DNA of 64,000 bases from an uncultured Balneolaceae bacterium. GTDB lineage: Bacteria; Bacteroidota; Rhodothermia; Balneolales; Balneolaceae. The position numbers and the translations under genes are program-made. Numbering within the stretch: the first letter of the stretch is position 1; each line of letters starts with the position of its first letter. The notes under the pieces were generated by a model. That model was given only the letters and a program-made list of their open reading frames with translations. It did not search any database and was not told where the DNA came from. Below are positions 1,483-56,252 of the stretch, piece after piece. The stretch is from the NCBI GenBank assembly GCA_963974345.1, contig CAXBBW010000018.1, forward strand, positions 2,369-66,368, read 5' to 3'.

Positions 1483-4047
1483 TTAAAAACTAATCCCAAT
1501 ACTGTCATTCGTTTCACTTTGATAAATAGAGATATGAGTATGATAAACTTCATTTTCTAATTCTGTACTCCAACTACTTACATCATTTTCATTTTGGGTA
1601 ATTTTAGTTGGTTTAACTTTTGATTGTATAGTTAAATTCACTGAATGACCGATAAAACTATTAACATTAAGCTCTAAATCGTTTTTTGAATATAAAACTG
1701 AATTAACACTCGCATTTATCCTTGTGAGCATAGGTTGAGTAATTCCCCCCATAATAATGTCAATCTCATTATTGCCGGGTTGAATAATTTTTGGAAGAAC
1801 TAAGCTATTTAAAGGTTTACCATTTACCGAAATGCTTTTAACGTATTCCCCTTCTCCTTTCAGATGCACCAAATATTTTTTTCCTGAATGAGTGAGACTG
1901 AAATCAACGTCTGTGATTTCTTTATTCAAATACGGATCAAACCGCACGTTCCATTCCGTTTCTTTGATTCCGAATAAATTGTACAAACTGTATAGGTACC
2001 AGCCGGCTGCCCAAGTAAACTGGGGCTTATCAATTTTGCCGTAGACCGACGCATCATCTTTATTACTTACTCTATACTCATACATTGCAGGTTGGCCGTT
2101 AGGACTGTTAATTGCCCCGTCTACCGTCATTACATCTTTGATAAAGCCTAGTGCTTGTTCTTTATTTCCTGCTTCTATCAATGAAAGCGCATACCAAGAA
2201 TTTCCATGAGGCCAGATTCCTCCATTAATGTAATAAAACGGATCTCCCGCTTCGTTGCCTTCCAGCTTCAGATATTCTATCAAATTCTGAAAATTCATTG
2301 GATAAACAGTATACACTCCAATCTTGGGGTCAACAATCTTTGAAGCAGCTGTTTCGGTAAGTTTAGCTTTTCGCTCATCACTCAATACATCATAATGACT
2401 TCCTAATAACGAGCCGATATAATAATGTTCATCGAGCGTACCATCTTCGAAGTAATTGATCAGATATTCCTGGTCTTCACTCCACAATTGTTCATTCAAT
2501 GCTTCTTGCATGGTTTTGATTTCTTCTTCCCATTCTACTAAAAGCTCCTCGTTTTCTCCAAGCTGACTTGATATATAAACATATTCCCGTAGTGCTTTTA
2601 TAGCGAGAATGGTTGTATAGGAACGTGGTCCTAGATTCCGAGCTATATCCCACCAGTCAGGTCGGTAAGAATAGATGATGTCGTTTTGTTTGTGAATTTT
2701 GAAATCATGAACACTTTTTGAGAGGTATGGATACATTTCCTTGAGAAACTCAGCGTCACCTGAATGGCGGAGATAGCTTCCTGCCACAATCACAAACCAG
2801 AAGTGATTCCAGTTGTCTGGTGGGGCTATTTCAGTTGCGAATTTATCATCCTTCCAATAGTAAGCGTGAGGAATTACAAAATTAGAATCGGCATGTTCGA
2901 GTATGAATTCTAGATCATGTTTTACTCTCGGGACATCAAAATTGATGGCTGCCAGATCGGTAAGTAATACATCATGCGTAAAATAGAAATTATACTCAGC
3001 AGGACATGGCATCGGTTGAAGACTTCCATCAATATAATGGCGGTTCACATCTAAAATACTATTTGCCCAAAGTACAGAATGATCTAAGACTGAATCTCCT
3101 GTCACAAATACGTTAGAGTTCACATAATCCAATACTTGTTTCTCATAAGCATCAGCTTCATCCTGAGCCGTATTCAAAAGTTTAGAAACTAAATCTCTTC
3201 CCTCACCCTCTTTAGTTGCCCCAATAATTTGAACAATTTTTACTTCCTCGCCTGAAGTCAATCTGGTTTTATATAAATATCTGATCGCAGGGGTTTGTTG
3301 GTTTGATTCAGCAGCTGTTTCATTCTCAAGATCGGTTTTAATTCCTTCCCACCATTTTTCTGATGCAGGAAGGCTATCAAGTTCACTAACCGAGCTATAT
3401 GCAACGGGTTGTAATCCACTGTTCGTAGCAAAGAGCTGCACATTTTGAGTCTCTTCTTCTTCAAAGTTGATATAGATTGAGTTTCCCTTTTTTTCGAATT
3501 CAGTCCATGCTTTATCTTTCGTAGCATAAGTATGGCTTGTTCTCAGACTGGCTTCAAGGTCGGTATAAAGTTCAAAGAACTCAGAACCATTACCTGTGTT
3601 CTTTAGGGTATAAGTGATGATTACCACCGGACTATCTTTCGAAAATTGATAGTTTATTGCGATCTCATGATTCTCTTCTTTTTTTAAATAGCTTACTTCA
3701 TACGGAGTAAGCTCCATTTCAAAGGGTTCGAAACCGACCCACTTATTTTCTTGGTTTCCGATTTTTAGGCCCAATACCATTGCAAAAGATTCGTCTCTTG
3801 TCCAGTAATCAGTACTTAAATCGATGCTATTAGCAACCGGATAGTAGAAACTTATTCGTTGAGGAAGCGGTGAACTTTGATGGAATTCCAATCCCACAAA
3901 AGGACTTCCAACTTCAACTGAAGCATCTCCATCAAAATGTACAGACAGTTCTTTTTTGAGTAATTCGTTTTTATCGGACTTACAATTTGTTAATAGGACA
4001 CATAGAAATAGTAAAAAGAAAACTGGGTAAACTTTTTTAATACTCAT
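1483..4047 (-). CDS. Lipoprotein with a C-terminal (alpha/alpha)6-barrel-like glycoside hydrolase domain (GDE_C/GH63/GH15-clan-like); family not resolved
   Basis: Lipobox LLTNC at the N-terminus. The W/Y/G-rich C-terminal half (INGGIWPHGNSWYALSLIEAGN, FTWAAGWYLYS) resembles barrel glycosidases. 4-nt ATGA overlap with the upstream GH130 gene. Confidence 0.4.
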   Translation of the reverse strand: MSIKKVYPVFFLLFLCVLLTNCKSDKNELLKKELSVHFDGDASVEVGSPFVGLEFHQSSPLPQRISFYYPVANSIDLSTDYWTRDESFAMVLGLKIGNQENKWVGFEPFEMELTPYEVSYLKKEENHEIAINYQFSKDSPVVIITYTLKNTGNGSEFFELYTDLEASLRTSHTYATKDKAWTEFEKKGNSIYINFEEEETQNVQLFATNSGLQPVAYSSVSELDSLPASEKWWEGIKTDLENETAAESNQQTPAIRYLYKTRLTSGEEVKIVQIIGATKEGEGRDLVSKLLNTAQDEADAYEKQVLDYVNSNVFVTGDSVLDHSVLWANSILDVNRHYIDGSLQPMPCPAEYNFYFTHDVLLTDLAAINFDVPRVKHDLEFILEHADSNFVIPHAYYWKDDKFATEIAPPDNWNHFWFVIVAGSYLRHSGDAEFLKEMYPYLSKSVHDFKIHKQNDIIYSYRPDWWDIARNLGPRSYTTILAIKALREYVYISSQLGENEELLVEWEEEIKTMQEALNEQLWSEDQEYLINYFEDGTLDEHYYIGSLLGSHYDVLSDERKAKLTETAASKIVDPKIGVYTVYPMNFQNLIEYLKLEGNEAGDPFYYINGGIWPHGNSWYALSLIEAGNKEQALGFIKDVMTVDGAINSPNGQPAMYEYRVSNKDDASVYGKIDKPQFTWAAGWYLYSLYNLFGIKETEWNVRFDPYLNKEITDVDFSLTHSGKKYLVHLKGEGEYVKSISVNGKPLNSLVLPKIIQPGNNEIDIIMGGITQPMLTRINASVNSVLYSKNDLELNVNSFIGHSVNLTIQSKVKPTKITQNENDVSSWSTELENEVYHTHISIYQSETNDSIGISF

Positions 4048-5171
4048 AAATGTCCTAATTCATTGAGTAACGACTTTAAGTTAATCCTTGCACCAAAAAT
4101 ACGACTATCAGCTCCAGCATAAGGTAATATCAAGTCATCATTCCATTGATAATTCGCACAAATGAATAACACATTATCTACTCCTAGGCTTTCATCACCC
4201 TTTTGCTCTTCTGATCCTGTAGGTCTCATAAGTGGCTCGATTCGTTTTTCAGGTTTACATTTTCCTTCTTCTGAAAAATCTAGAATGGTTACTGCCAAAT
4301 CGTATTCCCGATTGCGATCAGGCAAATAATGTCCTTGATGGTAAATAGTTAAAAACCGATTATTACCAAGAGATATAGGTGGACCACCTGCTCCAATCCA
4401 GGACTCACTAAACTCCTCATAACGGTAACTAGCCATGATCATCCCTTTGGTTTCCCAAGGTCCATGCAGACTTTCAGAAGTAGCCCAGTGAAGAGCTTTT
4501 GGATTTTCCCCCTGCATTGGGCGATGCAACAACACCCATTTTCCATGAACCTGTTTCGGTAGTAATACCGCGTTCTTGTTGTCTACATCATTAAGGTTTC
4601 CTGAAATTGGCCCTTTTAACTCCCAATTGATGAAATCTTTAGTAGTTGCCAGACAAATATGAACTTTGTTCCGATCTTCTGATTTGTTGTAATAATATCC
4701 GGTATAAAAAAAGTAATAGGTTCCATTTATATAGGTACACCGTCCATCTTCAACACCTAAATTATGATAAGCTTCATCTGGAGAAATAGCTGGGGTTTCC
4801 TTTCTCCAAACCAGTTCAAGAGTTGGAGTAAAAACTGCTAACCCTGCTGATGAAGGAGCCAATCCCTTTTTGGGATCAACCTCGCCTTGTGCACGATATA
4901 ACATTACCGTTGCTCCACCCATTTCCAATAATTTTTTCTGTTCATCTGAATCCAATCCCCAGGCAACCATTAATGGACCTAATTTTTCTAAATCATCAAT
5001 AAGAACAGCAGCAGGATTCAATACTACTTTAGATTCCCAATGTGAATCTTGTTTGGGTACCAAAACAGGCATTCCTTCATTCATTCTTGTAATTTTCAGA
5101 GAATGATTGATTTCAATACTTCTCTCCAGAGCTTGTTCATACATTGGTGTTGCGTCTTTCAAATGTGGCAT
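4044..5171 (-). CDS. GH130 family beta-mannoside phosphorylase/glycosidase (cytoplasmic)
   Basis: No signal peptide. GH130-like blocks VVLNPAAV, GVEDGRCTYINGTYYFFYTGY, KNAVLLPKQVHGKWVLLHRP, IGAGGPP, YAGADSRI. Confidence 0.7.
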   Translation of the reverse strand: MPHLKDATPMYEQALERSIEINHSLKITRMNEGMPVLVPKQDSHWESKVVLNPAAVLIDDLEKLGPLMVAWGLDSDEQKKLLEMGGATVMLYRAQGEVDPKKGLAPSSAGLAVFTPTLELVWRKETPAISPDEAYHNLGVEDGRCTYINGTYYFFYTGYYYNKSEDRNKVHICLATTKDFINWELKGPISGNLNDVDNKNAVLLPKQVHGKWVLLHRPMQGENPKALHWATSESLHGPWETKGMIMASYRYEEFSESWIGAGGPPISLGNNRFLTIYHQGHYLPDRNREYDLAVTILDFSEEGKCKPEKRIEPLMRPTGSEEQKGDESLGVDNVLFICANYQWNDDLILPYAGADSRIFGARINLKSLLNELGHL

Positions 5172-5186
5172 TAAATCGAAATATTT

Positions 5187-6194
5187 TTATGAATTAGTTT
5201 TGTTTTGAAGCATCCAATCAAGCACATCCTGTAAAGGGGCTTGTGCATGACCAATTACGGAGTCGGCTGCGCCATAATACACGTGAAGTGTTTCCCCGAT
5301 TACGACAGCACCTTCCGGAAAAACCACATTATTCACATCACCGAAAAGTTCAAAGTCTAGCTCAGGCTCTAAAAGTGGAATTGGACTTTTTGCTATCACT
5401 TTTTCCGGATTTTCTAAGTCTAATAATGCCATACCCATTCTATACACATGGTTGTTATCCACCCCATGATAAATAAGTAACCAACCTTCATCCGTTTCAA
5501 TTGGAGTAGGACCAGCTCCAATTTTCAGATTTTCCCATTCAAATTCAGGACGCATTACGGTATGATCTTCCAGATTTTCTAAATGATGTTCCCAAAATCC
5601 CTCTTCAGGATTATGAAACTCCTGGATTGAATCGAGATAGATAATCTGAATATTAGGAACCACACGATGAAGCATGGCAATTTTACCGTTTATTCGTTTT
5701 GGGAAAATAACAGCATCTTTATCTCTTAGGTCTACTGGACCTGCAATACCGTTTTTTTCGATAGTTTTAAAATCGTAAGTAATTGCCAGACCAATTCTAA
5801 CTCCGTTTACCTCATCAAATGCATGACGTTGAAGAGCGGTATAGGTAATCAAATATTGACCGTCAAGTTTCGATATTCTGGGATCTTCTGATCCAAATTT
5901 ATTGAACCAATCATCGGTTCCAATAAAAGGTTCTTCCCTCCAATCGAAATGAATTCCGTCTTTACTCGAAGCATAACCGATGTACGAAATATATTTCTCG
6001 TCGAAACCAGTGTCTGGTTCTCCAGGTTGAACATTTTTCAACTTTATTCGTTCATAACCTTTTGGAATTGCCCTGAAAAGTAAATGGACTAACTCTCCGT
6101 CGTAAAAAGCACCGGGATTAAATACAGCTCCACTTGCCCACTCTATATCCTTTCTCGGTGCGAGTAAGGGAGTTTTTGTTTTTTTAAACAACAT
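5187..6194 (-). CDS. GH130 family beta-mannoside phosphorylase (cytoplasmic)
   Basis: No signal peptide. GAVFNPGAFYDGELVHLLFRA, GSEDPRISKLDGQYLITYTA, DKDAVIFPKRINGKIAMLHR, IGAGPTPIETDEGWLLIYHGV, YYGAADSVIG are typical GH130 blocks. Confidence 0.8.
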   Translation of the reverse strand: MLFKKTKTPLLAPRKDIEWASGAVFNPGAFYDGELVHLLFRAIPKGYERIKLKNVQPGEPDTGFDEKYISYIGYASSKDGIHFDWREEPFIGTDDWFNKFGSEDPRISKLDGQYLITYTALQRHAFDEVNGVRIGLAITYDFKTIEKNGIAGPVDLRDKDAVIFPKRINGKIAMLHRVVPNIQIIYLDSIQEFHNPEEGFWEHHLENLEDHTVMRPEFEWENLKIGAGPTPIETDEGWLLIYHGVDNNHVYRMGMALLDLENPEKVIAKSPIPLLEPELDFELFGDVNNVVFPEGAVVIGETLHVYYGAADSVIGHAQAPLQDVLDWMLQNKTNS

Positions 6195-6214: not shown

Positions 6215-7666
6215 TTAGTTTTGATTAAGTAAAGTATTCAGTTCTGTTTCGGTAATAATTCTTGATGTAGAATCAGTAAGATTTAGAAGTACAGCAATTT
6301 TCTCCGTCTCTTGATTCTGGTTGACCGTAAATACCCGATATTGATAGCTTTTTCCATCTTTTATCCAAATTAAGGGTTCTTCTGATTTTGCATAAAACCA
6401 TTTGTTTGAAAGGGTAAATTGTTCTACTTCAAGTACCGTAAAGTCAGCTTCAATTGTAGATTCAGCACCAGAATTTTTATTTACGTTGTTTTCGCTGTTT
6501 ATTCCATCATATCCGTAACCATGAAGGGAATTGTACATTTTGGTTTCTGCCACATTATTCCCATTGAGCCAACTTGCTAATAAACCGGCCATAATTGCAT
6601 AATCATCGTTTTGGGTGGCTTCATATAATCTAATCATTCCTACTGAAGCTGCTCGGGTTGCATAGGCTATTTGTTCAAAATCTCTTTTGTTTGATGGATT
6701 TTGAAGATCGAAAGAATGAAACCAACCATTTACAAGTAGCATTGGGAAAAAGTTCTCGGCTTCAATTACTGCACTTTCTAGTTTTCCTGCTTCTGCTAAT
6801 GCCATTGTTTGAGAATTTCCCCAGCCATGCCAACCACCTTCCCAGGAAAGATGTGCACCATATGGAGCATTTGTAAGATCACCATATTGAAGCATTGCTA
6901 TACCTTCACTAAACTTATTAATTGCATCGTCATATTTCCCGTTTGATGAAACTTTAGATGCGGCAACCAATCCCAATAGTAATTCACTTGTAGCATCAGA
7001 GCCTGTTTCTCCTATCAACCATGTTGGCATTTCGAATCCATTTACTATTTTTGTTTTCGGGTATGCTTCAAGTACTTCATTTATGTGAGGAAGTATTTTA
7101 TCAACCGAAAGAAGACTCATATTTGCAAAAGAAGAATCATATTCTGCAAGAACTCTTGCACCGGTTCCTAATGCCCACACTGCTCTTCCTGCCCACCAAT
7201 TTACTTCATTCGCCACACTATTTTTATGCGTTGTGTTTTTCCTGAGTGAATTATCCCAAACAAAATTGTGAAATAAGCCATCTTCTGTTTGCATATACAT
7301 TACAAACCGTAATAATTCTTTCGCTTTTTCCGCTGATTCTTCGTTTCCGGTGAGTTCAAAATGCCGTAAGTAAACTACTGCTGCCCTTGCCGCATCATCA
7401 ACACAGGCTTCTCCTTCGTCGTCATCTCCAACCCAGTTATAGTCGGGGGCATCTGCATATATGTGTATAATTCGAAGATCCTCACCTCCATAACTAACTA
7501 CTTCGCTTAGATAATCAAGATGACTAAGATTTAATATGGAAGAAGCAGGGTCCTCCTTTCCTCCGCTTTCTTTACAACTCGCTAATATCATTAGGCAAAG
7601 GATCATAGAAACATAAAGTGTTCTTTTTTTGTATGGATGGATATTCATTGTAGAGTTTCTGTTCAT
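6215..7666 (-). CDS. Lipoprotein of unknown function in the glycan operon (possibly a helical-barrel glycan-active protein)
   Basis: Lipobox ILASC. Start overlaps the permease stop by 1 nt (TAATG). No motif I can assign. Confidence 0.3.
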   Translation of the reverse strand: MNRNSTMNIHPYKKRTLYVSMILCLMILASCKESGGKEDPASSILNLSHLDYLSEVVSYGGEDLRIIHIYADAPDYNWVGDDDEGEACVDDAARAAVVYLRHFELTGNEESAEKAKELLRFVMYMQTEDGLFHNFVWDNSLRKNTTHKNSVANEVNWWAGRAVWALGTGARVLAEYDSSFANMSLLSVDKILPHINEVLEAYPKTKIVNGFEMPTWLIGETGSDATSELLLGLVAASKVSSNGKYDDAINKFSEGIAMLQYGDLTNAPYGAHLSWEGGWHGWGNSQTMALAEAGKLESAVIEAENFFPMLLVNGWFHSFDLQNPSNKRDFEQIAYATRAASVGMIRLYEATQNDDYAIMAGLLASWLNGNNVAETKMYNSLHGYGYDGINSENNVNKNSGAESTIEADFTVLEVEQFTLSNKWFYAKSEEPLIWIKDGKSYQYRVFTVNQNQETEKIAVLLNLTDSTSRIITETELNTLLNQN

Positions 7667-22854: not shown

Positions 22855-22935
22855 TATGAGTAGCCAGTGATTATTGACAAACCAGCAGGAAATATTTTCC
22901 CAACTATTCATTGTCTTTTATTGAACTCTAAAACA

Positions 22936-25900
22936 ATGCACGGAAAAACAAAAGTGATTAATTTCTTATTAATCATCGAATTGATGGGTGTATTTTTTTT
23001 ATCGGGCACTTTAAGCGCTCAACAAATTGATATAAACAGAATCAATCAAATGCCCGATTTTCCAACTCCATATATTATGCGTGATTGGGAAAATGCAACC
23101 ATAGAATATGATTCCTTCGTTTTTAACCTAGATGCCACCGGACAATATTTACCAGTATTATTTTTCAGGGATACCCCAGTCAACTACCCAAATGAACCTA
23201 GTTTTGGTTTGCATACGGTAGTAGGAACTTCCTCTCCCACTTCAGGAGAAGCCATAAATGTGCTGCCAGCTCTTATTGGAGCTTCATTAGTTGGAATTGA
23301 TAAAAGTGATCAGAATGGATACAACTGGGTAAGAATGAGCCGGGAATTTTTCAATAAACGCCCTGAAGAAAATGTCTATCTCAACCATCCTTCTACTGAA
23401 AGTGGCGATGACTGGTGGTACGCTACTATGCCAAGTGTGTTCTTTTATCAGCTTTATGATTTATATCCTGAAACAGAAGACTTCGAATATCAGTTGAAAA
23501 GCGTTGCAGATCAGTGGTCAACCGCTATTGATAAAATGGGTGGTAGTGCTACTCCTTGGAAGGTTCCTAATATGAATTATCGGGGTTGGTATTTATCGAC
23601 TATGACTCCTTATACCAGTGGAGTTAAAGAACCGGAAGCTGCCGGAGCATTAGCTTGGATGTTATACAACGCTTACAAAGAAACCGGTGAAATCAAATAC
23701 AGAATGGGTGCCGAGTGGGCTATGGAGTTTTTGAATGCATATCCATCAAACCCGTCGTATGAGCTACAGCTAATTTATGGCATCTACACCGCAGCAAAAA
23801 TGAATGCTGAATTGGGTACAGAATATGATGTTGAAAAAATGTTGAACTGGACATTTGATGTAGGTCCATTGCGTGAATGGGGATCTATTGTAGGTAATTG
23901 GGGCGGACTTGATGTTTCTGGTTTAATAGGTGAAGTTAATGGAAGTAATGATTATGCCTTCTCTATGAACACATTTCAGCAAGCGGGAGCATTATTACCA
24001 TTATTACGTTATGATGATCGCTTTGCAAATGCTCTTGGTAAATGGATGCTTAATGCAGCAAATGCATCCAGACTTTTTTATACAGAATTTCTACCAGATA
24101 ATAAGCAAGACAGTGACGAATGGGCTCACGAATATGACCCGAACTCTGTACTTGGTCATGAAGCAATTAGGGAATCGAAATTCAATTTATCTCCTTATGC
24201 AACTGGAGATGCCATTGCCGGAGGCTGGGGAAGTACCAATCTTACTTTATATAGTTCTTCTCATGTCGGATACTTTGGTAGTATTATTGATACCACAAAT
24301 GTGGAAGGAATTCTGAAATTGGACTTATTGAAAACGGATTTCTTCAGGGATGAAGCCTACCCTACCTATTTGATAAATAATCCTTACGAAAGTTCAAAAA
24401 CGGTGTCTATTGATGTGGGCAACGGAAGCAAAGATATTTACGAATCAACAACCAATAGTTTTATTAGCACGGGAATTACAGGAGATACTGAAATCACCAT
24501 TCCTGCATTGAGTTCTTTTGTAATCGTTCTTACCCCGAGTGGTAGAATAAAATCTTATGAATACGATAAACTGTTAGTTGATAATGTCATTGTTGATTAT
24601 ATGTCCGGCCAATCTGTACCGAATTATCCTCCAAGAATTAAAGGTCTTGCAGCTGTTTCCCATAAATTATTGAAGTCAGATTCGACTTTTATTTATGCAA
24701 CTGCTGTAGATACAGACGAAGATTTACTGAACTATACCTGGTCATCAGAGTCGGGAACATTTATTGGTACTGGTTCAAAAGTAACATGGGTAGCTCCGGA
24801 TACTTCAGGCGAATATACCATTCAGGTACAGGTGAGTGACGGCAGTAGCGACCCTATCATTGAACACTTAGTTATTGAAGTAGTTGAAAAATTCAATTCA
24901 GCACCGAAAATTAGCAGTCTGAATGCAAACCCGAGAAAACTTGATTTAGGTGGCACATCCGAAATCAGTTGTTTAGCTAGTGATGAAGATGAGGATGAAA
25001 TTTTGCTTGGATGGAGTAGTTCGGGCGGAAGTATTGAGGGAACAAATGAAACCATTCAATGGAAAGCTCCGGAAACAGAAGGAAACTTTTACATTAAATG
25101 TGAGGCACGCGACCCGGATGGAGAAAGTGACTCAGATAGTATTGCTATTTCAGTGAGGGATTTGTCCGAAATCAATTCAGGTAATCTGGTGTTATACCTT
25201 CCGTTCAATGGAACTGCGTTAGATGAAAGTGGGAATTCTACCGAAGTAACGTTAAGTGGAGCATCACTTACTTCAGACCGATACGATGACTCCCAAAGAG
25301 CATATAGATTTGATGGGATCAATGATTTTATAAAAGTGACTAACTCCGAACTTCTAAATTTCTCGGATGCCATCACCCTTAATTTTTGGATTAACATTTC
25401 CACCTTTTATGATAGGGAGCAATATCCCATTTCACATGGCAATTGGGAAAAGAGATGGAAAATATCTGTTTCGGATAATATTCTCCGTTGGACGATAAAC
25501 ACCTCATCCGGAATTACGGATCTTGATGCAGAAACTGCCCTCGAAAAAAATAAATGGTATAATATTACCGCTTATTATTCCGGGGATGATATGGAATTAT
25601 ATATTGATGGAAACTTGGACGCCTTTAAATACTGGAACGGAAGTATAAGCCCCTCTCCTGTTGACTTAACTATTGGTCAGGTGCTACCCAACAATAATCA
25701 ATACAATTTTAACGGGAAAATTGATGACATACGATTGTATGATTATCCTTTGTCGCTCCAAGAGATTACTGAGCTTTTAACACTTAGTACGAATAATGAA
25801 GAAGAAAGTAAAAGTGAAATCCCCGAGAATACCGTTCTACATCAAAATTATCCAAACCCATTTAACCCTTCTACCGTTATTAGTTACCAATTATCAGAAC

Positions 25901-26088
25901 ACAGTTTGGTTTCGTTAAAGGTTTATGATTTGTTAGGTCGGGAAGTTGCCACCTTAGTTGATGAAAGAGTAAATGCCGGCAAACATCAGGTAACCTTGGA
26001 CGCTTCAGAATTTTCAAGTGGCATTTATTTCTACCGACTTACAACCAATAACATCTCCTTTACCAAAAGGATGATATTAATGAAATAA
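22936..26088 (+). CDS. T9SS-secreted multidomain protein: N-terminal unknown (possibly helical GH-like) domain, two PKD/Ig-like modules, LamG/ConA-like lectin domain, CTD
   Basis: ATG at 22936 gives a signal peptide (MHGKTKVINFLLIIELMGVFFLSGTLSAQ). PKD-like YTWSSESGTF...YTIQVQVSDG and LGWSSSGGSI...FYIKCEARDPDG. LamG-like LVLYLPFNG...FDGINDFIKV...IDDIRLYDYPLS. C-terminal LHQNYPNPFNPSTVISYQL...GIYFYRL. Confidence 0.65.
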   Translation: MHGKTKVINFLLIIELMGVFFLSGTLSAQQIDINRINQMPDFPTPYIMRDWENATIEYDSFVFNLDATGQYLPVLFFRDTPVNYPNEPSFGLHTVVGTSSPTSGEAINVLPALIGASLVGIDKSDQNGYNWVRMSREFFNKRPEENVYLNHPSTESGDDWWYATMPSVFFYQLYDLYPETEDFEYQLKSVADQWSTAIDKMGGSATPWKVPNMNYRGWYLSTMTPYTSGVKEPEAAGALAWMLYNAYKETGEIKYRMGAEWAMEFLNAYPSNPSYELQLIYGIYTAAKMNAELGTEYDVEKMLNWTFDVGPLREWGSIVGNWGGLDVSGLIGEVNGSNDYAFSMNTFQQAGALLPLLRYDDRFANALGKWMLNAANASRLFYTEFLPDNKQDSDEWAHEYDPNSVLGHEAIRESKFNLSPYATGDAIAGGWGSTNLTLYSSSHVGYFGSIIDTTNVEGILKLDLLKTDFFRDEAYPTYLINNPYESSKTVSIDVGNGSKDIYESTTNSFISTGITGDTEITIPALSSFVIVLTPSGRIKSYEYDKLLVDNVIVDYMSGQSVPNYPPRIKGLAAVSHKLLKSDSTFIYATAVDTDEDLLNYTWSSESGTFIGTGSKVTWVAPDTSGEYTIQVQVSDGSSDPIIEHLVIEVVEKFNSAPKISSLNANPRKLDLGGTSEISCLASDEDEDEILLGWSSSGGSIEGTNETIQWKAPETEGNFYIKCEARDPDGESDSDSIAISVRDLSEINSGNLVLYLPFNGTALDESGNSTEVTLSGASLTSDRYDDSQRAYRFDGINDFIKVTNSELLNFSDAITLNFWINISTFYDREQYPISHGNWEKRWKISVSDNILRWTINTSSGITDLDAETALEKNKWYNITAYYSGDDMELYIDGNLDAFKYWNGSISPSPVDLTIGQVLPNNNQYNFNGKIDDIRLYDYPLSLQEITELLTLSTNNEEESKSEIPENTVLHQNYPNPFNPSTVISYQLSEHSLVSLKVYDLLGREVATLVDERVNAGKHQVTLDASEFSSGIYFYRLTTNNISFTKRMILMK

Positions 26089-26236
26089 AGAAGCTTACGG
26101 AGTATTTAGAAGCTGGAGGTTGGATGATTGATATTGGAGCACCTTTTACGTAGGAGACCATTGGAATTACTCAGCAAGATCATCACGAGTCCGGTACTAA
26201 TCTAACGCTTCAAATCGATTTAAATGCATTTAAATA

Positions 26237-27820
26237 ACCTCCCTTGATACCTGCTACTTTGCTTTTTACAGGCTGTTCCTCCCATCCTTATTAACGAGGG
26301 GATTGAGGGAAGATCGGTTTATCAATTGGTTCAATAATCTGCTTTAGAAACAAGATCAAAGCCCCCAAAAATAAGACCGGGAAACATGGGTATGAAGAAT
26401 CCGGAGAGTTGGTAGGATCGTAAGCGGGGAAGAATTTCAACGGATCGTCAAAACGAAATCTACATGGTTTCCGGCGACTTTTCGTTCTTTTGGTCACTCA
26501 AAAGGACAAACCCTTCATCGCTGGAGGAATGACCTCCCCTGATACCTGCCACATTGCTCTTTTCAGGCAGTTCCTCCCCTCCTTACTAAGGAGGGGATTG
26601 AGAGGAGGTCGGTTTATCAATTGGTTCAATAATCTGCTTTAGAAACAAGATCAAAGCCTCCAAAAACAAGTCCAAAAGAAATGCGGTAGGCTTAGGCGTA
26701 GAGCTAGGAAGTACCCAGTTGTAGAAAGGAAATCAACGGATAGAAAAGGGAACATCTTCATTTCTTTTGGTGACTTTTCGTTCTTTTGGTCACTCAAAAG
26801 AACAAACCCTTCATCGCTGGAGGAATGACCTCCCCTGATACCTGCTATATTGCTCTTTATAGGCTGTTCCTCCCCTCCTTACTAAGGAGGGGATTGAGGG
26901 GAGGTCGTTTATTACTGGTACCGATGATCTGCTTCAGAAACAAGATTAAAGCCCCCAAAACAAGTCCAAAAGAAATGCGGTAGGCTTAGGCGTAGAGCTA
27001 GGAAGTACCCAGTTGTAGAAAGGAAATCAACGGGTAGGAAAGGGAACATCTTCATTTCTTTTGGTGTCTTTTCGTTCTTTTGGTCACTCAAAAGAACAAA
27101 CGGAATATATATTAGGTCTCAAAAATTAATAGCCTAATGATAACATACAGGCTTCTATCCACGAAGTTCCTTCGGAAGTATCCTCAGGATGACTATGGAA
27201 GATAATAATCAGCCTTTGAATTGTTGTTACCGGAGTTGAATAAAGTTCTTTAAACAATTGAACCAAATTCATGCAACAATTGAAGAGAGTTTTTATAAGA
27301 ACCCAAACGAGTTTGTCTATAAACTTAACTGAGTTTATATAAGAACTTTAAAAAGTTTTACTGAAAACTTTTTCTACACGTATCGACAGTTCGTAACGGA
27401 CATCTAAACGCAACGCATTAGATCTGGAGCTTCGTGAATACCTACCACATTGCTCTTTTCAAGCAGTTCCTCCCCTCCTTAGTAACGAGGGGATTGAGGG
27501 ATGTCGATTTTTCAATTGGTTCGATGATCTGCTTCAGAAACAAAATCAAAGCCCCCAAAACAAGTCCGGGAAACATGGGTATGAAGAATCCAGAGAGTTG
27601 GTAGGATCGTAAGCGGGGAAGAATTTCAACGGATCGTCAAAACGAAATCTACATGTTTTCCGGCGACTTTTCGTCCTTTTGGTCGCTCAAAAGAACAAAC
27701 CCTTCATCGCTAAAGGAATGACCTCCCCTGATACCTGCCACATTGATCTTTAATAAGCAATTCCTCCCCTCCTTATTAACGAGGGGATTGAGGGAAGGTC
27801 GTTTTTTACTGGTTTCAATA
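26237..27820. repeat. Array of ~295-bp structured non-coding repeats
   Basis: Units: 26237-26531, 26532-26827, 26828-27101, then a 335-bp unrelated insert, 27437-27720, and a head-only unit 27721-27820. Each unit has a head with nested inverted repeats (e.g. GACCTCCCCT 26827-26836 / AGGGGAGGTC 26897-26906 enclosing TCCCCTCCTT-ACT-AAGGAGGGGA), a central module, a tail in two variants and an end hairpin TTCTTTTG-GTCACT-CAAAAGAA. Periods measured: 295, 296 and 293 bp. Confidence 0.9.
27166..27193 (-). repeat. Solo copy of the GIY-YIG-element terminal motif (GTCATCCTGAGGATACTTCCGAAGGAAC on the minus strand)
   Basis: GTTCCTTCGGAAGTATCCTCAGGATGAC closely matches the right inverted repeat at 56221-56250. 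A weaker copy, CCTCAGAGATGAC, lies at 27872-27884. Confidence 0.6.
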
Positions 27821-27968
27821 GTATCACCTAGAACAACGCTGTGTGCTTCTTTCAAACCAAAGTACCCTGCCTCCTCAGAGATGACCAAATAGACGAAATA
27901 CCCAAAAAATAATCGCATTCCTTGTCTCTTTAAATACAATATTGTTCTGTAATCAAGAACGATCAATT

Positions 27969-29522
27969 ATGGCAGAAAAAATCTGGTGGAAAGAAACGGT
28001 ATTCTATGAAATTTATATGCCCAGCTATAAAGATGGCAATGGTTATGGGTATAGTGATTTTAAAGGACTGACCACAAAGCTATCTTATATAGAAAGTTTA
28101 GGAGTGAAAGGCATTTGGCTCACTCCTTTTTTGCAATCGCCTAAAGTTGATAACGGGTACGATGTTTCAAACTATTATCAGATTGATTCCACTTATGGTA
28201 CGCTGGAGGATTTCAAAGTATTTATACAAGAAGCGCACAATCTCGGAATAAAAGTAATTATGGATTTGGTTTTGAATCACACTTCTACAGAATCAGTATG
28301 GTTTCAGGAAGCTCAAAAATCTATCCACAATCCTTATCGAAATTATTATATATGGAAAGACAAGCCAAACAACTGGGAGTCTTTTTTTGGAGGTTCAGCA
28401 TGGGAACTCGATCCAATATCTAGCCAATATTACTACCATAAATTTGATGCTAAAATGGCCGATCTGAATTGGCAAAATCCTAAAGTAGTTGAGGAAATCA
28501 AAAAGGTATTAAGGTTTTGGCTGGAATTGGGTGTTGATGGATTCCGGCTTGATGTGATCAACTTTTTGACTACTGAAGGCATCACTTCAGATAATCCAAT
28601 AAATGAAGATGGAACACAAAATCATCTGTACGACATCAATCAGAAAGGATTAAAAGCAGCCATGAAAATGATTCGTGCTACTGTGAATGAATACGATGAT
28701 CGGTTTATAGTGGGCGAAATTGGAAGCGAAGACATTCATGTGCTAAATCAATATCAGGGAAGTAAATTATTAGATGTCGTTTTCAATTTTAATTTCGGAA
28801 GTATTACCGAGTTTTCTGCTCAACGTATATTTGATGAACTCCAAAGTATGGAGAAAAACATGAGTAGCTATCCGACTTTGTTTTTTGGAAGTCATGATTT
28901 GCCCCGGCTCATAGATCGATTGGCAAAGAATAATCCTGAAAGAGCAGAAGCCTTGGCTGCGCTAATGTTAACTGCTAAGGGCGTTCCTTTTATATATTAT
29001 GGTGAAGAAATTGGAATGGAAAATATAGAAGCCTACTCTATTAATGAAATAATAGATATTCAAGGTCGCACACAGTATCAGTTAGTCTTAGATAACGGTA
29101 AATCTGTTGATCAAGCTCTTGAAATCGGAAATAAACACAACAGGGATAAATCTCGGAGTCCAATGCAGTGGGATGACACCGAACATTCCGGATTTTCCGA
29201 TCGAACTCCCTGGATAAAGGTTCATCAAAATCATAGTTATTTGAATGTAGCTGCATCTGAGAAAGATGAACACTCGTTATTGAATAGGTATAAGAAAATT
29301 ATTTCTTTACGAAATTCAGAACCTGTCCTTCAATATGGGTACTATAAAGAACTTACTTTTTTGAATGATATGATAATCTTTACCAGAATTTTTGATGGTG
29401 ACACCATTAAATGCTATTTCAATTTTGGGGAACTTCCATATCAAGTAGCTTTAGAAAAGAAAGAGCGTATTTTACTGGGAGAATTAACCATTGAACCTGA
29501 TAAGTATTTGATTATCAAATAA
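27969..29522 (+). CDS. GH13 alpha-glucosidase / oligo-1,6-glucosidase-like enzyme
   Basis: WWKETVFYEIY, GIWLTPF, DNGYDVSNYY, VIMDLVLNHTS, GVDGFRLDVINF (nucleophile region), VGEIGSE, FGSHDLPR. ATG at 27969 is preferred to TTG 27942. Confidence 0.88.
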   Translation: MAEKIWWKETVFYEIYMPSYKDGNGYGYSDFKGLTTKLSYIESLGVKGIWLTPFLQSPKVDNGYDVSNYYQIDSTYGTLEDFKVFIQEAHNLGIKVIMDLVLNHTSTESVWFQEAQKSIHNPYRNYYIWKDKPNNWESFFGGSAWELDPISSQYYYHKFDAKMADLNWQNPKVVEEIKKVLRFWLELGVDGFRLDVINFLTTEGITSDNPINEDGTQNHLYDINQKGLKAAMKMIRATVNEYDDRFIVGEIGSEDIHVLNQYQGSKLLDVVFNFNFGSITEFSAQRIFDELQSMEKNMSSYPTLFFGSHDLPRLIDRLAKNNPERAEALAALMLTAKGVPFIYYGEEIGMENIEAYSINEIIDIQGRTQYQLVLDNGKSVDQALEIGNKHNRDKSRSPMQWDDTEHSGFSDRTPWIKVHQNHSYLNVAASEKDEHSLLNRYKKIISLRNSEPVLQYGYYKELTFLNDMIIFTRIFDGDTIKCYFNFGELPYQVALEKKERILLGELTIEPDKYLIIK

Positions 29523-29852: not shown

Positions 29853-29936
29853 ATGAAAAACAATTTTAGAAATAACACCCCATCTTTCCTCCTCGTAATT
29901 ATTACAATTACGATTATTTTCATTATTACCCCTTAG
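29853..29936 (+). promoter_or_regulatory. Candidate thr-operon leader peptide (27 codons, Ile/Thr-rich) 84 nt upstream of thrA
   Basis: MKNNFRNNTPSFLLVIITITIIFIITP. Ten of the 12 codons between V and the final P are Ile (7) or Thr (3). The stop TAG sits in the loop of hairpin TACCCC-TTAG-GGGGTA (29927-29942). Confidence 0.4.
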
Positions 29937-44525: not shown

Positions 44526-44553
44526 GATACTTCAGAAGTATCCTCAGAAGGAC
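44526..44553 (-). repeat. Solo variant of the GIY-YIG-element terminal motif between convergent genes
   Basis: GATACTTCAGAAGTATCCTCAGAAGGAC aligns with 27166-27193 and 56223-56250. It contains the hairpin GATACTT-CAG-AAGTATC. Confidence 0.5.
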
Positions 44554-55749: not shown

Positions 55750-56252
55750 GGGTCATTCTGAGCGAATGCGAAGAACCTTGGCGGATGAGTGCATCGTTTC
55801 CCCTCTCAATTCATTTTTTTGTAAGGAACCTCTCTTTCACAGGTCTAACTATACTATGAAAGAATATTATGTCTATATCGTGACAAACCCAAGTAAAACT
55901 ACCTTATACACAGGAGTAACCAACCATTTAGAAAGACGATTGATTGAACATTATCACAACAAAGGGAATCAAGATACTTTTGCTGGGAAATATTACTGCT
56001 ACAACTTATTGTATTATGAACCTTTCCAAACATCTCATGAAGCAATCCAAGCAGAAAAGTATATAAAAGGGAAAAACAGATCTAAAAAGGAAGCTATTAT
56101 AAAAGAACGCAATCCTTCATTGGCTTTTTTTAAACAGGAAGGTATTGGGTTACTGGCCACCGAAGTGAATCCTTTGCTCTGGCAATCAGATAATTCATAA
56201 CGAGGGTAGTTTATCTCGCCAAGGTCCTTCGGAGGTATCCTCAGGATGACCC
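55750..56252 (+). mobile_element. 503-bp unit: GIY-YIG nuclease gene bracketed by ~35-bp imperfect terminal inverted repeats (putative mobile or selfish cassette)
   Basis: Left end GGGTCATTCTGAGCGAATGCGAAGAACCTTGGCGG (55750-55784). The reverse complement of the right end (56216-56252) reads GGGTCATCCTGAGGATACCTCCGAAGGACCTTGGCGA. Both share GGGTCATYCTGAG at the tips and CGAAGRACCTTGGCG at the inner edges. Confidence 0.55.
55856..56200 (+). CDS. GIY-YIG nuclease family protein (UPF0213/YhbQ-like), 114 aa
   Basis: MKEYYVYIVTNPSKTTLYTGVTNHLERRLIEHY...YYCYNLLYYEPF...AIQAEKYIKGKNRSKK matches the GIY...YxG...R..EH...E pattern. The ATG at 55856 is preferred; the longer TTG ORF (55748) would translate the inverted repeat. 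Confidence 0.8.
   Translation: MKEYYVYIVTNPSKTTLYTGVTNHLERRLIEHYHNKGNQDTFAGKYYCYNLLYYEPFQTSHEAIQAEKYIKGKNRSKKEAIIKERNPSLAFFKQEGIGLLATEVNPLLWQSDNS

Follow-up and report, generated by a model that had tools for sequence, protein, structure and literature searches.

What is the 1.6-kb stretch of non-coding DNA that separates a gene for a secreted, lectin-like protein from a glycoside hydrolase gene in a marine, Balneolaceae-like member of the Bacteroidota, and how could its hairpin-rich repeat units have arisen? The stretch is an array of four full units of ~295 bp and one head-only unit, laid out in two blocks, and it lies in the window (the whole stretch of DNA that was analysed, 64 kb), which is part of a 339.6-kb Tara Oceans metagenome scaffold, scaffold_69. 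An earlier reading of the letters without database searches (the sequence-only reading) had offered three options, namely a tandem array of small RNA genes, an array of small-peptide or antisense cassettes, and a pile-up of repetitive extragenic palindromic (REP) sequences or MITEs (miniature inverted-repeat transposable elements). The last of these is the best fit, given a widespread palindromic head module, insertion at a hotspot, decaying heads, no recurrent signals and no strand bias. The array looks most like a lineage-specific, non-coding macrosatellite in the style of REPs, bacterial interspersed mosaic elements (BIMEs) and REP doublets forming hairpins (REPINs), set in a variable intergenic hotspot, and like selfish palindromic elements amplified on the spot rather than a group of RNA or peptide genes. 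What is seen in it is characteristic of repeat DNA that is selfish or neutral, and annotation does not explain it.

The layout proposed from the letters is borne out by independent repeat detection. Tandem Repeats Finder reports a period of 295, with 2.9 copies and 85% matches, at 26233-27101, and the repeat finder recovers the head core five times, at spacings of 295, 296, 600 and 294 bp. A 34-nt head pattern occurs at 26276, 26571, 26867, 27467 and 27761 and nowhere else in the window (0 expected by chance), and a 31-nt end hairpin pattern has four matches, all in the array and none elsewhere in the window. In the phase used here, the units run from 26215 to 26509 (u1), 26510 to 26805 (u2), 26806 to 27101 (u3), 27405 to 27698 (u4) and 27699 to ~27822 (u5). 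The unrelated insert between the blocks, put earlier at 335 bp, is 303 bp long in this phase (27102-27404), or 336 bp if counted to 27438, where similarity resumes. The left flank of block I shares no homology beyond ~20 nt with the insert that precedes block II. The parts of the array are as follows.

26233-26509, no strand: unit 1, with its head at 26236-26315 (fold lost), central stretch at 26316-26376, type A tail at 26377-26474 and end hairpin at 26484-26507.
26510-26805, no strand: unit 2, with a pre-head hairpin at 26512-26527, head at 26531-26610 (outer stem GACCTCCCC/GAGGAGGTC, a weak second hairpin, and the hairpin TCCCCTCCTTACTAAGGAGGGGA at 26575-26597), central stretch at 26611-26671, type B tail at 26672-26770 and end hairpin at 26780-26803.
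26806-27101, no strand: unit 3, the best-preserved copy, with its head at 26827-26906 (outer stem perfect over 9 bp; inner hairpin at 26871-26893 perfect over 10 bp), type B tail at 26966-27064 and end hairpin at 27074-27097.
27102-27404, no strand: AT-rich unrelated insert between units 3 and 4, separating the two blocks.
27405-27698, no strand: unit 4, with its head at 27427-27505 (outer stem broken, fold largely lost), central stretch at 27506-27565, type A tail at 27566-27663 and end hairpin at 27673-27696.
27699-27822, no strand: unit 5, head only, with its pre-head at 27701-27716 and head at 27720-27800; similarity to the other units stops at ~27822.

Each unit is a succession of modules: a pre-head hairpin, a head of ~80 nt, a weakly structured central stretch, a tail cassette of ~100 bp and an end hairpin. 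Two hairpins lie within the outer stem of the head (GACCTCCCC / GGGGAGGTC). One is weak and poorly conserved; the other is strong, with 10 bp (TCCCCTCCTTA-N-TAAGGAGGGGA), and its arms are a perfect Shine-Dalgarno sequence (SD, TAAGGAGG) and the perfect complement of that sequence, an anti-SD (CCTCCTTA). The nested inverted repeats reported earlier for the head do fold well in u2 and u3 (z against shuffles of -3.7 and -4.5, respectively) and moderately in u5 (-2.5), and the fold is lost in two of the five heads, u1 (0.07) and u4 (-1.2). For unit 2 as a whole, too, either strand gives a better fold than its shuffles (z = -2.0 and -2.5). The tail cassette is bounded by a 12-bp inverted repeat (given also as 12-16 bp), which reads CCGGGAAACATG / CATG(G/T)TTTCCGG in type A and CCAAAAGAAATG / CATTTCTTTTGG in type B, and the end hairpin is a 10-bp, AT-rich palindrome of 24 nt with no U-tail on either strand. 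The 23-nt head hairpin, the 24-nt end hairpin and the tail closed by its inverted repeat are all intergenic, and they are short extragenic palindromes of the kind that REPs are made of (imperfect, ~20-60 bp).

The modules have not diverged evenly. Identity between units is 74-91% in the heads and 77-94% in the central modules, and tails of the same type are 97-98% identical (type A, u1 and u4, 98%; type B, u2 and u3, 97%), compared with 74-94% for the rest of the same units. Between u1 and u4, 2 of 104 tail positions differ versus 30 of 171 elsewhere (Fisher p = 2.8e-5, or 3e-5 when rounded); between u2 and u3, the tail and end hairpin differ at 3 of 133 positions and the remainder at 19 of 142 (p = 6e-4). 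This unevenness favors module shuffling or gene conversion over simple slippage, as the sequence-only reading had held, and it means that the cassettes were either homogenized by short conversion tracts or kept under constraint. The two tail types described in that reading are real, although their mutual identity of 52-57% falls slightly under the ~60% claimed. Its further claim, that two central variants combine with the two tails in all four possible ways, matches a pattern that exists in the alignment, but the alpha/beta split of the central module consists of four informative sites plus a u3-specific block common to u5, and the four combinations are accordingly thinly supported. On a larger scale, the best alignment of block II (u4 and u5) is to the initial 1.3 units of block I (386 nt, 89% identical), which suggests a segmental duplication.

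We consider the chances about even that the array is a REP/BIME/REPIN-like, higher-order palindromic array that grew by unequal crossing-over with patchy gene conversion. Under such a history, a composite of hairpin modules, one of them a palindromic element found across phyla, would have been seeded in the gap between the two genes, and unequal crossing-over or slippage of replication between units would have multiplied it. A further duplication, of ~1.3 units, may then have given block II, the tails may later have been homogenized within each type by short-tract gene conversion, or kept alike by constraint, and the heads at the edges of the blocks would have decayed.

A different account of the tails is that the cassettes are small mobile or invertible segments (MITE-like elements or invertons with 12-16-bp inverted repeats) that entered, or were exchanged within, an older and decaying array, which would explain the near-identity within each tail type. 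The boundaries speak for it: 46 of the 54 informative sites are specific to A or B, all of them between alignment columns 166 and 263, so that the split starts and ends at the inverted repeat, and the tract of high identity between u1 and u4 (columns 164-273) coincides with the cassette to within 2-10 nt. A size of ~100 bp and inverted repeats of this length fit MITEs and Bacteroidota invertons. REPINs are comparable in both respects (PMC3116915). Other results count against it. Neither cassette has another copy in 76 kb of scaffold (the window plus 12 kb more), and no target-site duplication was visible by eye. A protein-domain scan of the 38 long open reading frames (ORFs) of the window, together with the genes called in the additional 12 kb, gave sugar-utilization, amino-acid and housekeeping functions for the window ORFs, and among these 38 there was no cas, integrase, transposase, reverse transcriptase or invertase gene. 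The cassette also lacks the promoter-like box of an inverton, and types A and B are direct homologues rather than inverted versions of one another. On balance, mobile or invertible cassettes seem rather improbable.

The site of insertion is variable, as comparison with related contigs shows. The genes and unique flanks on either side of the array are listed here.

22867-26088, plus strand: upstream gene, encoding a lectin-like cargo protein of the type IX secretion system (T9SS), 1073 aa long, with the Pfam domains PKD, Laminin_G_3 and Por_Secre_tail; syntenic in relatives.
26089-26232, no strand: unique left flank of the inserted region, without similarity to relatives or to the repeat units.
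27823-27904, no strand: unique right flank of the inserted region.
27969-29522, plus strand: downstream gene, a 517-aa enzyme of glycoside hydrolase family 13 (GH13; alpha-glucosidase / alpha-amylase family), identified by Pfam and by homologues.

Homology to the region upstream of the relatives' GH13 gene starts again at ~27905-27929. In the related contigs L137-139 the two flanking genes are 39 bp apart, and in L145 and L146 they are 278 bp apart. The closest relatives, L133-136 (GH13 82% identical), hold an AbiEi_2 gene and a 277-aa partner on the minus strand in the same gap, at 4027-5833 (1033-2839 in L135). None of these gaps (L133-139, L145 and L146) contains anything that resembles the array, and the idea that the array is a remnant of the relatives' AbiE genes was rejected, as tblastn found nothing. 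The differing gap contents mark the array as a lineage-specific insertion of ~1.8 kb in a variable hotspot, and the gap is, judged from these contigs, an apparent hotspot for accessory or defense cargo.

Several other observations concern the surroundings. The AT-rich insert between u3 and u4 contains a tandem repeat of 22 bp x 2.8 (GAGTTTATATAAGAACTTAAAC-like) at 27287-27348. It also contains, at 27168-27193, one copy of a second, unrelated, short REP-like repeat, TCCTTCGGA(A/G)GTATCCTCAGGATGAC, which is dispersed in intergenic DNA of the source genome (further window copies at 56225-56250 and 44530-44547) and which occurs twice per contig, in opposite orientations and downstream of the GH13 gene, in the relatives L145 (3156-3184 and 3350-3379) and L146 (6067-6095 and 6261-6290). 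The window has a GC content of 36.6% and few genes with SD sequences; its ThrA falls in the same 90% cluster as a protein of a 'Balneolaceae bacterium' metagenome-assembled genome (MAG), and the nearest named homologues of the GH13 protein, at 78% or less, are from Flavobacteriaceae. Among the genes of the glycan-utilization cluster that precedes thrA (within 1-29522) are those for an ABC sugar transporter and a TonB-dependent receptor, along with GH94, GH13, two GH130 genes and T9SS cargo genes. This cluster is absent upstream of thrA in the Balneolaceae MAG GCA_040222455.1 (L149); it looks accessory and was possibly transferred. A Thr/Ile-rich leader ORF of 27 codons (MKNNFRNNTPSFLLVIITITIIFIITP) lies at 29853-29936 on the plus strand, ~85 bp upstream of thrA, with a similar one in L149. 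It is probably a thr-operon attenuator leader peptide, for which no Rfam match was reported.

Could the array encode something? Six-frame translation found no ORF or frame that is conserved or open across the units, in agreement with the earlier statement that the listed ORFs are not conserved between them. The ten listed array ORFs of at least 43 aa gave no significant Pfam match, only sub-threshold noise, and the longest unit-specific ORF (68 aa) has no homologue among 5.8 billion proteins. The small-peptide cassettes offered by the sequence-only reading are thus not supported. In the public assembly an 89-aa 'gene' is called at 27649-27918 on the minus strand, across the end hairpin of u4, the head of u5 and the right flank; it has no family match and is almost certainly spurious.

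A second functional possibility is an array of structured non-coding RNAs, in which each unit or tail cassette yields an RNA, either as its own transcript or cut from a long one, and the hairpins of head and end act in processing or stability. The units are indeed rich in hairpins, with unit 2 and the heads of u2 and u3 folding better than shuffles, and conservation is far higher in the tails than in other parts of the unit. The 12-bp stem that closes the tail differs between A and B by four pairs changed on both sides with complementarity kept, and type A has in addition a G.U pair on the plus strand. The AbiE-type module at the same site in a relative indicates that accessory functions do land there. 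On the other side, the absence of a match to known RNA families, noted earlier from the letters, holds up: Rfam 15 at gathering thresholds gave, over the whole window, a sole match to a tRNA at 1-81 and none in the array, and at E <= 10 the best matches in 26000-28000 reached 20-22 bits (E 0.3-0.5), far under the family thresholds. (The tRNA gene, on the plus strand, is truncated by the window start.) The search for promoters and intrinsic terminators found none common to all units. A single Bacteroidota -7 box (TAnnTTTG) is present in the array, in u1, and none inside the tail cassette; sigma-70-like sites number 2 versus 4.8 expected, fewer than in shuffles; and among four terminator-like sites (2.9 expected) only two stand at equivalent positions, both on the minus strand, in u1 and u4, which are the type A units.

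The pattern of structural change also tells against an RNA product. Besides the loss of the fold in u1 and u4, the mismatches in five stems are split about evenly between those that are G.U-type on the plus strand and those that are A.C-type (G.U on the minus strand), and with neither strand favored there is no sign of RNA-level selection on one of them. RNAalifold finds little structure inside the cassette that is common to A and B beyond the closing stem, and the locus is not conserved in relatives. Selection on pairing is in evidence solely at the tail-closing stem, where compensatory change would be just as expected of a DNA element with two ends that have to match. Taken together, we regard an RNA array as possible but unlikely.

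Could the array belong to a class that is already known? The alternation of a structured repeat with a more variable stretch loosely recalls chromosomal integrons and CRISPRs, and a toxin-antitoxin or abortive-infection module occupies the same site in a relative. We nevertheless find it extremely unlikely that the array is a CRISPR array, a cluster of attC sites lacking integron-integrases (CALIN) or a ToxI-like array, as each candidate fails on its own terms. CRISPR arrays have repeats of 23-55 nt and unique spacers about as long, usually with cas genes. Such an array, already excluded on first reading, was rejected because the period is 295 nt, the 'spacers' of ~200 nt between heads come back in the order A, B, B, A, and no cas gene is among the scanned ORFs; the sole CRISPR-repeat match of Rfam in the array region scored 18.8 bits against a threshold of 41. 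In a CALIN, the core sites R'' (RYYYAAC) and R' (GTTRRRY) of attC would bracket each imperfect palindrome; neither strand of 26089-27968 has such a pair, and no integrase is among the scanned ORFs. ToxI-like type III antitoxin arrays are tandem repeats of ~34-40 nt directly upstream of an endoribonuclease toxin gene; here the period is 295 nt and the downstream gene encodes the GH13 glycosidase.

It must also be asked whether the mosaic order or the copy number was produced by short-read metagenome assembly, with paths switched between near-identical segments or strains. The source is a metagenome scaffold, units share segments of as much as 148 nt at 97% identity, and a related strain with other gap content (L134) was assembled from the same Tara sample, all of which could favor such switching. 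Against this, the region contains no N runs, and the units differ at many positions, which makes most k-mers unique. The 89-aa ORF across the u4 end, u5 and the right flank is recorded in contigs of three size classes, as is the GH13 protein, and the repeat family itself cannot be created by assembly. An assembly artefact is therefore highly unlikely as the source of the mosaic.

Where does the head come from? A 23-mer of the head matches 11 single-copy loci among 185,579 species genomes, 10 of which share the wider architecture; these 10 convincing loci are from Paceibacterota, Saccharibacteria, Ignavibacteriaceae, Neomarinimicrobiota, Thermodesulfobacteriota and Bacteroidota, and 40 consecutive nucleotides of unit 3 are identical to a Paceibacterota locus. 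The bare head hairpin is found at no fewer than 120 metagenome loci. GGGG(A/T)GGT usually comes 2-8 nt after it, and ACC(A/T)CCCC often stands before it, separated by a short linker or a GC hairpin. At two other loci head-type elements are clustered in tandem, in L102 (117 bp x 2.3) and in L045 (44 bp x 3). Rfam gave no family for the element in twenty loci that carry it, and full-text literature searches on the hairpin and on related Bacteroidota repeats found no description of head-type elements. The head is one copy of an unannotated family of short palindromic elements with a wide distribution among phyla. In the outer stem of these elements, no covariation was seen at the single A/T position examined (9 mismatched, 4 paired), and a crude ORF-based census of their context proved too noisy for use.

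Individual members of the family occur in varied settings. In L008, an Ignavibacteriaceae MAG, a T9SS-secreted protein has a head-type element of 54 nt (~7070-7125, minus strand) embedded in frame within its C-terminal sorting domain, where the element adds TSPASLPLLTKEGIEGRF between two strands of the domain (IRYTIP-TSPASLPLLTKEGIEGRF-VTLKVYD); this exact peptide was not found in other proteins. In L045 an Rfam T-box leader match spans 442 nt (751-1192), stretched because the three tandem 44-bp elements sit inside it, at 900-1033, from which it follows that head-type elements can land in a riboswitch-like leader. A composite of three hairpins recurs in L001, L009, L025, L028, L043, L059, L069 and L083, in the order TTCCT, hairpin, A(A/T)TGAGGGGAGGTTC, TTAATTAAT, GGAACC(C/T)CTCCC and a second hairpin, CCCTCTCCTT..AAGGAGAGGG. 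The first half of this composite is nearly identical to the window head, and two of its carriers, L001 and L009, belong to the candidate phyla radiation (Paceibacterota and Saccharibacteria).

How firmly, then, can the array be assigned to REP-style DNA? Several results weigh against the assignment. The central stretch, the tail and the end hairpin were found nowhere else in any collection searched: a pattern of head plus central stretch had 0 matches in JGI metagenomes (26 bases) and 0 in viral contigs, the end hairpin had 0 matches in viral contigs, units 2-3 had no blastn match in plasmids or phages, and no unit module lies outside the array in the 76 kb of scaffold or at the Balneolaceae MAG locus. 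True REP, REPIN and MITE families are multi-copy, and a head that is the only module found beyond the array is at odds with that. No gene for a REP-associated tyrosine transposase (RAYT), or for any transposase, was seen in the 38 long window ORFs or in the 12 kb of added scaffold. Inspection by eye showed neither a GTAG/CGTC tag beside the head hairpin (the end hairpin is preceded by CGTTC, and by CGTCC in u4 only) nor a target-site duplication. The four compensatory pair changes in the tail-closing stem are a further difficulty, the similarity of same-type tails could reflect purifying selection on a functional tail rather than conversion, and unit order and copy number rest on a short-read metagenome assembly. 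With dispersed copies, tag and RAYT gene not found in the DNA examined, the array is not a proven member of a REP family. A bolder alternative, namely that the unit, or at least its tail cassette with two covarying versions, is an undescribed functional structured RNA or recombination cassette in an accessory/defense hotspot, and the cross-phylum head family a new class of mobile or regulatory element, appears distinctly unlikely to us.

Any effect of the array on the cell is most likely indirect. In the event of read-through from the upstream gene, the stable hairpins would serve as barriers at the RNA 3' end, or as insulators, between the gene for the secreted protein and that for GH13, a role of the kind proposed for REP and BIME elements.

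If the REP-style reading holds, higher-order palindromic arrays of this type would also occur in Balneolaceae-like Bacteroidota and could form around a short hairpin that is common, almost base for base, to distant phyla. The head-type family is abundant in metagenomes and has no Rfam family, and since its hairpin pairs a perfect SD with a perfect anti-SD, it merits a survey of how many copies there are, of whether it moves and of a possible link to translation. The locus also illustrates clearly how variable an intergenic hotspot can be, with 39 bp, an AbiE module or a repeat array in the same gap. Arrays like this one set traps for gene callers, as with the 89-aa 'gene', and for short-read assemblers.

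The closest known systems are the REP-based mosaics of proteobacteria. BIMEs of E. coli are bacterial interspersed mosaic elements, extragenic mosaics of palindromes. In Pseudomonas fluorescens SBW25, REPINs are repeated in tandem along with the sequence that flanks them (as many as four REPINs, > 700 bp), and REPs of two types, GI and GIII, form ordered arrays (PMC3116915). Like these clusters and like BIMEs, the array is extragenic, non-coding and mosaic, with different imperfect palindromes in a fixed order, and like the SBW25 REPIN clusters it was amplified in tandem together with flanking sequence, as expected of a higher-order cluster. It is longer in total than the 700-bp-plus SBW25 clusters, and its period is 295 bp, compared with ~184 bp (spacings of 112 + 72 bp) in the ordered REP arrays of SBW25 (PMC3116915). 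Most REPs carry a tag (GTAG/CGTC tetranucleotides) at one end (PMC3733652). The array differs from REPs and BIMEs in that its modules are not dispersed in the 76 kb, no such tag and no RAYT were seen, and its host is a Balneolaceae-like Bacteroidota rather than a proteobacterium; furthermore, one of its modules comes from a cross-phylum family, whereas REP and BIME families are genome-specific. The head-type element itself resembles Rickettsia palindromic elements (RPEs), which are MITEs whose insertion in frame is tolerated, in being short (~54 nt between boxes), palindromic and, once, in frame (in L008). RPEs are confined to one genus. The head-type family differs in spanning phyla, in that its exact in-frame peptide was not found in other proteins, and in having no known transposase partner or target-site duplication. 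Chromosomal integrons such as those with Vibrio VCR repeats share the alternation of an imperfect palindrome of ~80-95 nt with a cassette-like stretch, and cassettes that can recur, but the array has no attC cores, no integrase and ~200-nt cassettes devoid of ORFs, and its head folds as a three-stem structure where attC-type sites form a single bulged hairpin. Finally, although it is very short for satellite DNA, lies in a compact bacterial genome and has a unit that consists almost entirely of palindromic modules, the array resembles tandem satellite and macrosatellite DNA, which evolves through unequal crossing-over and gene conversion, in its head-to-tail organization, its block duplication (89%) and its segment-wise homogenization.

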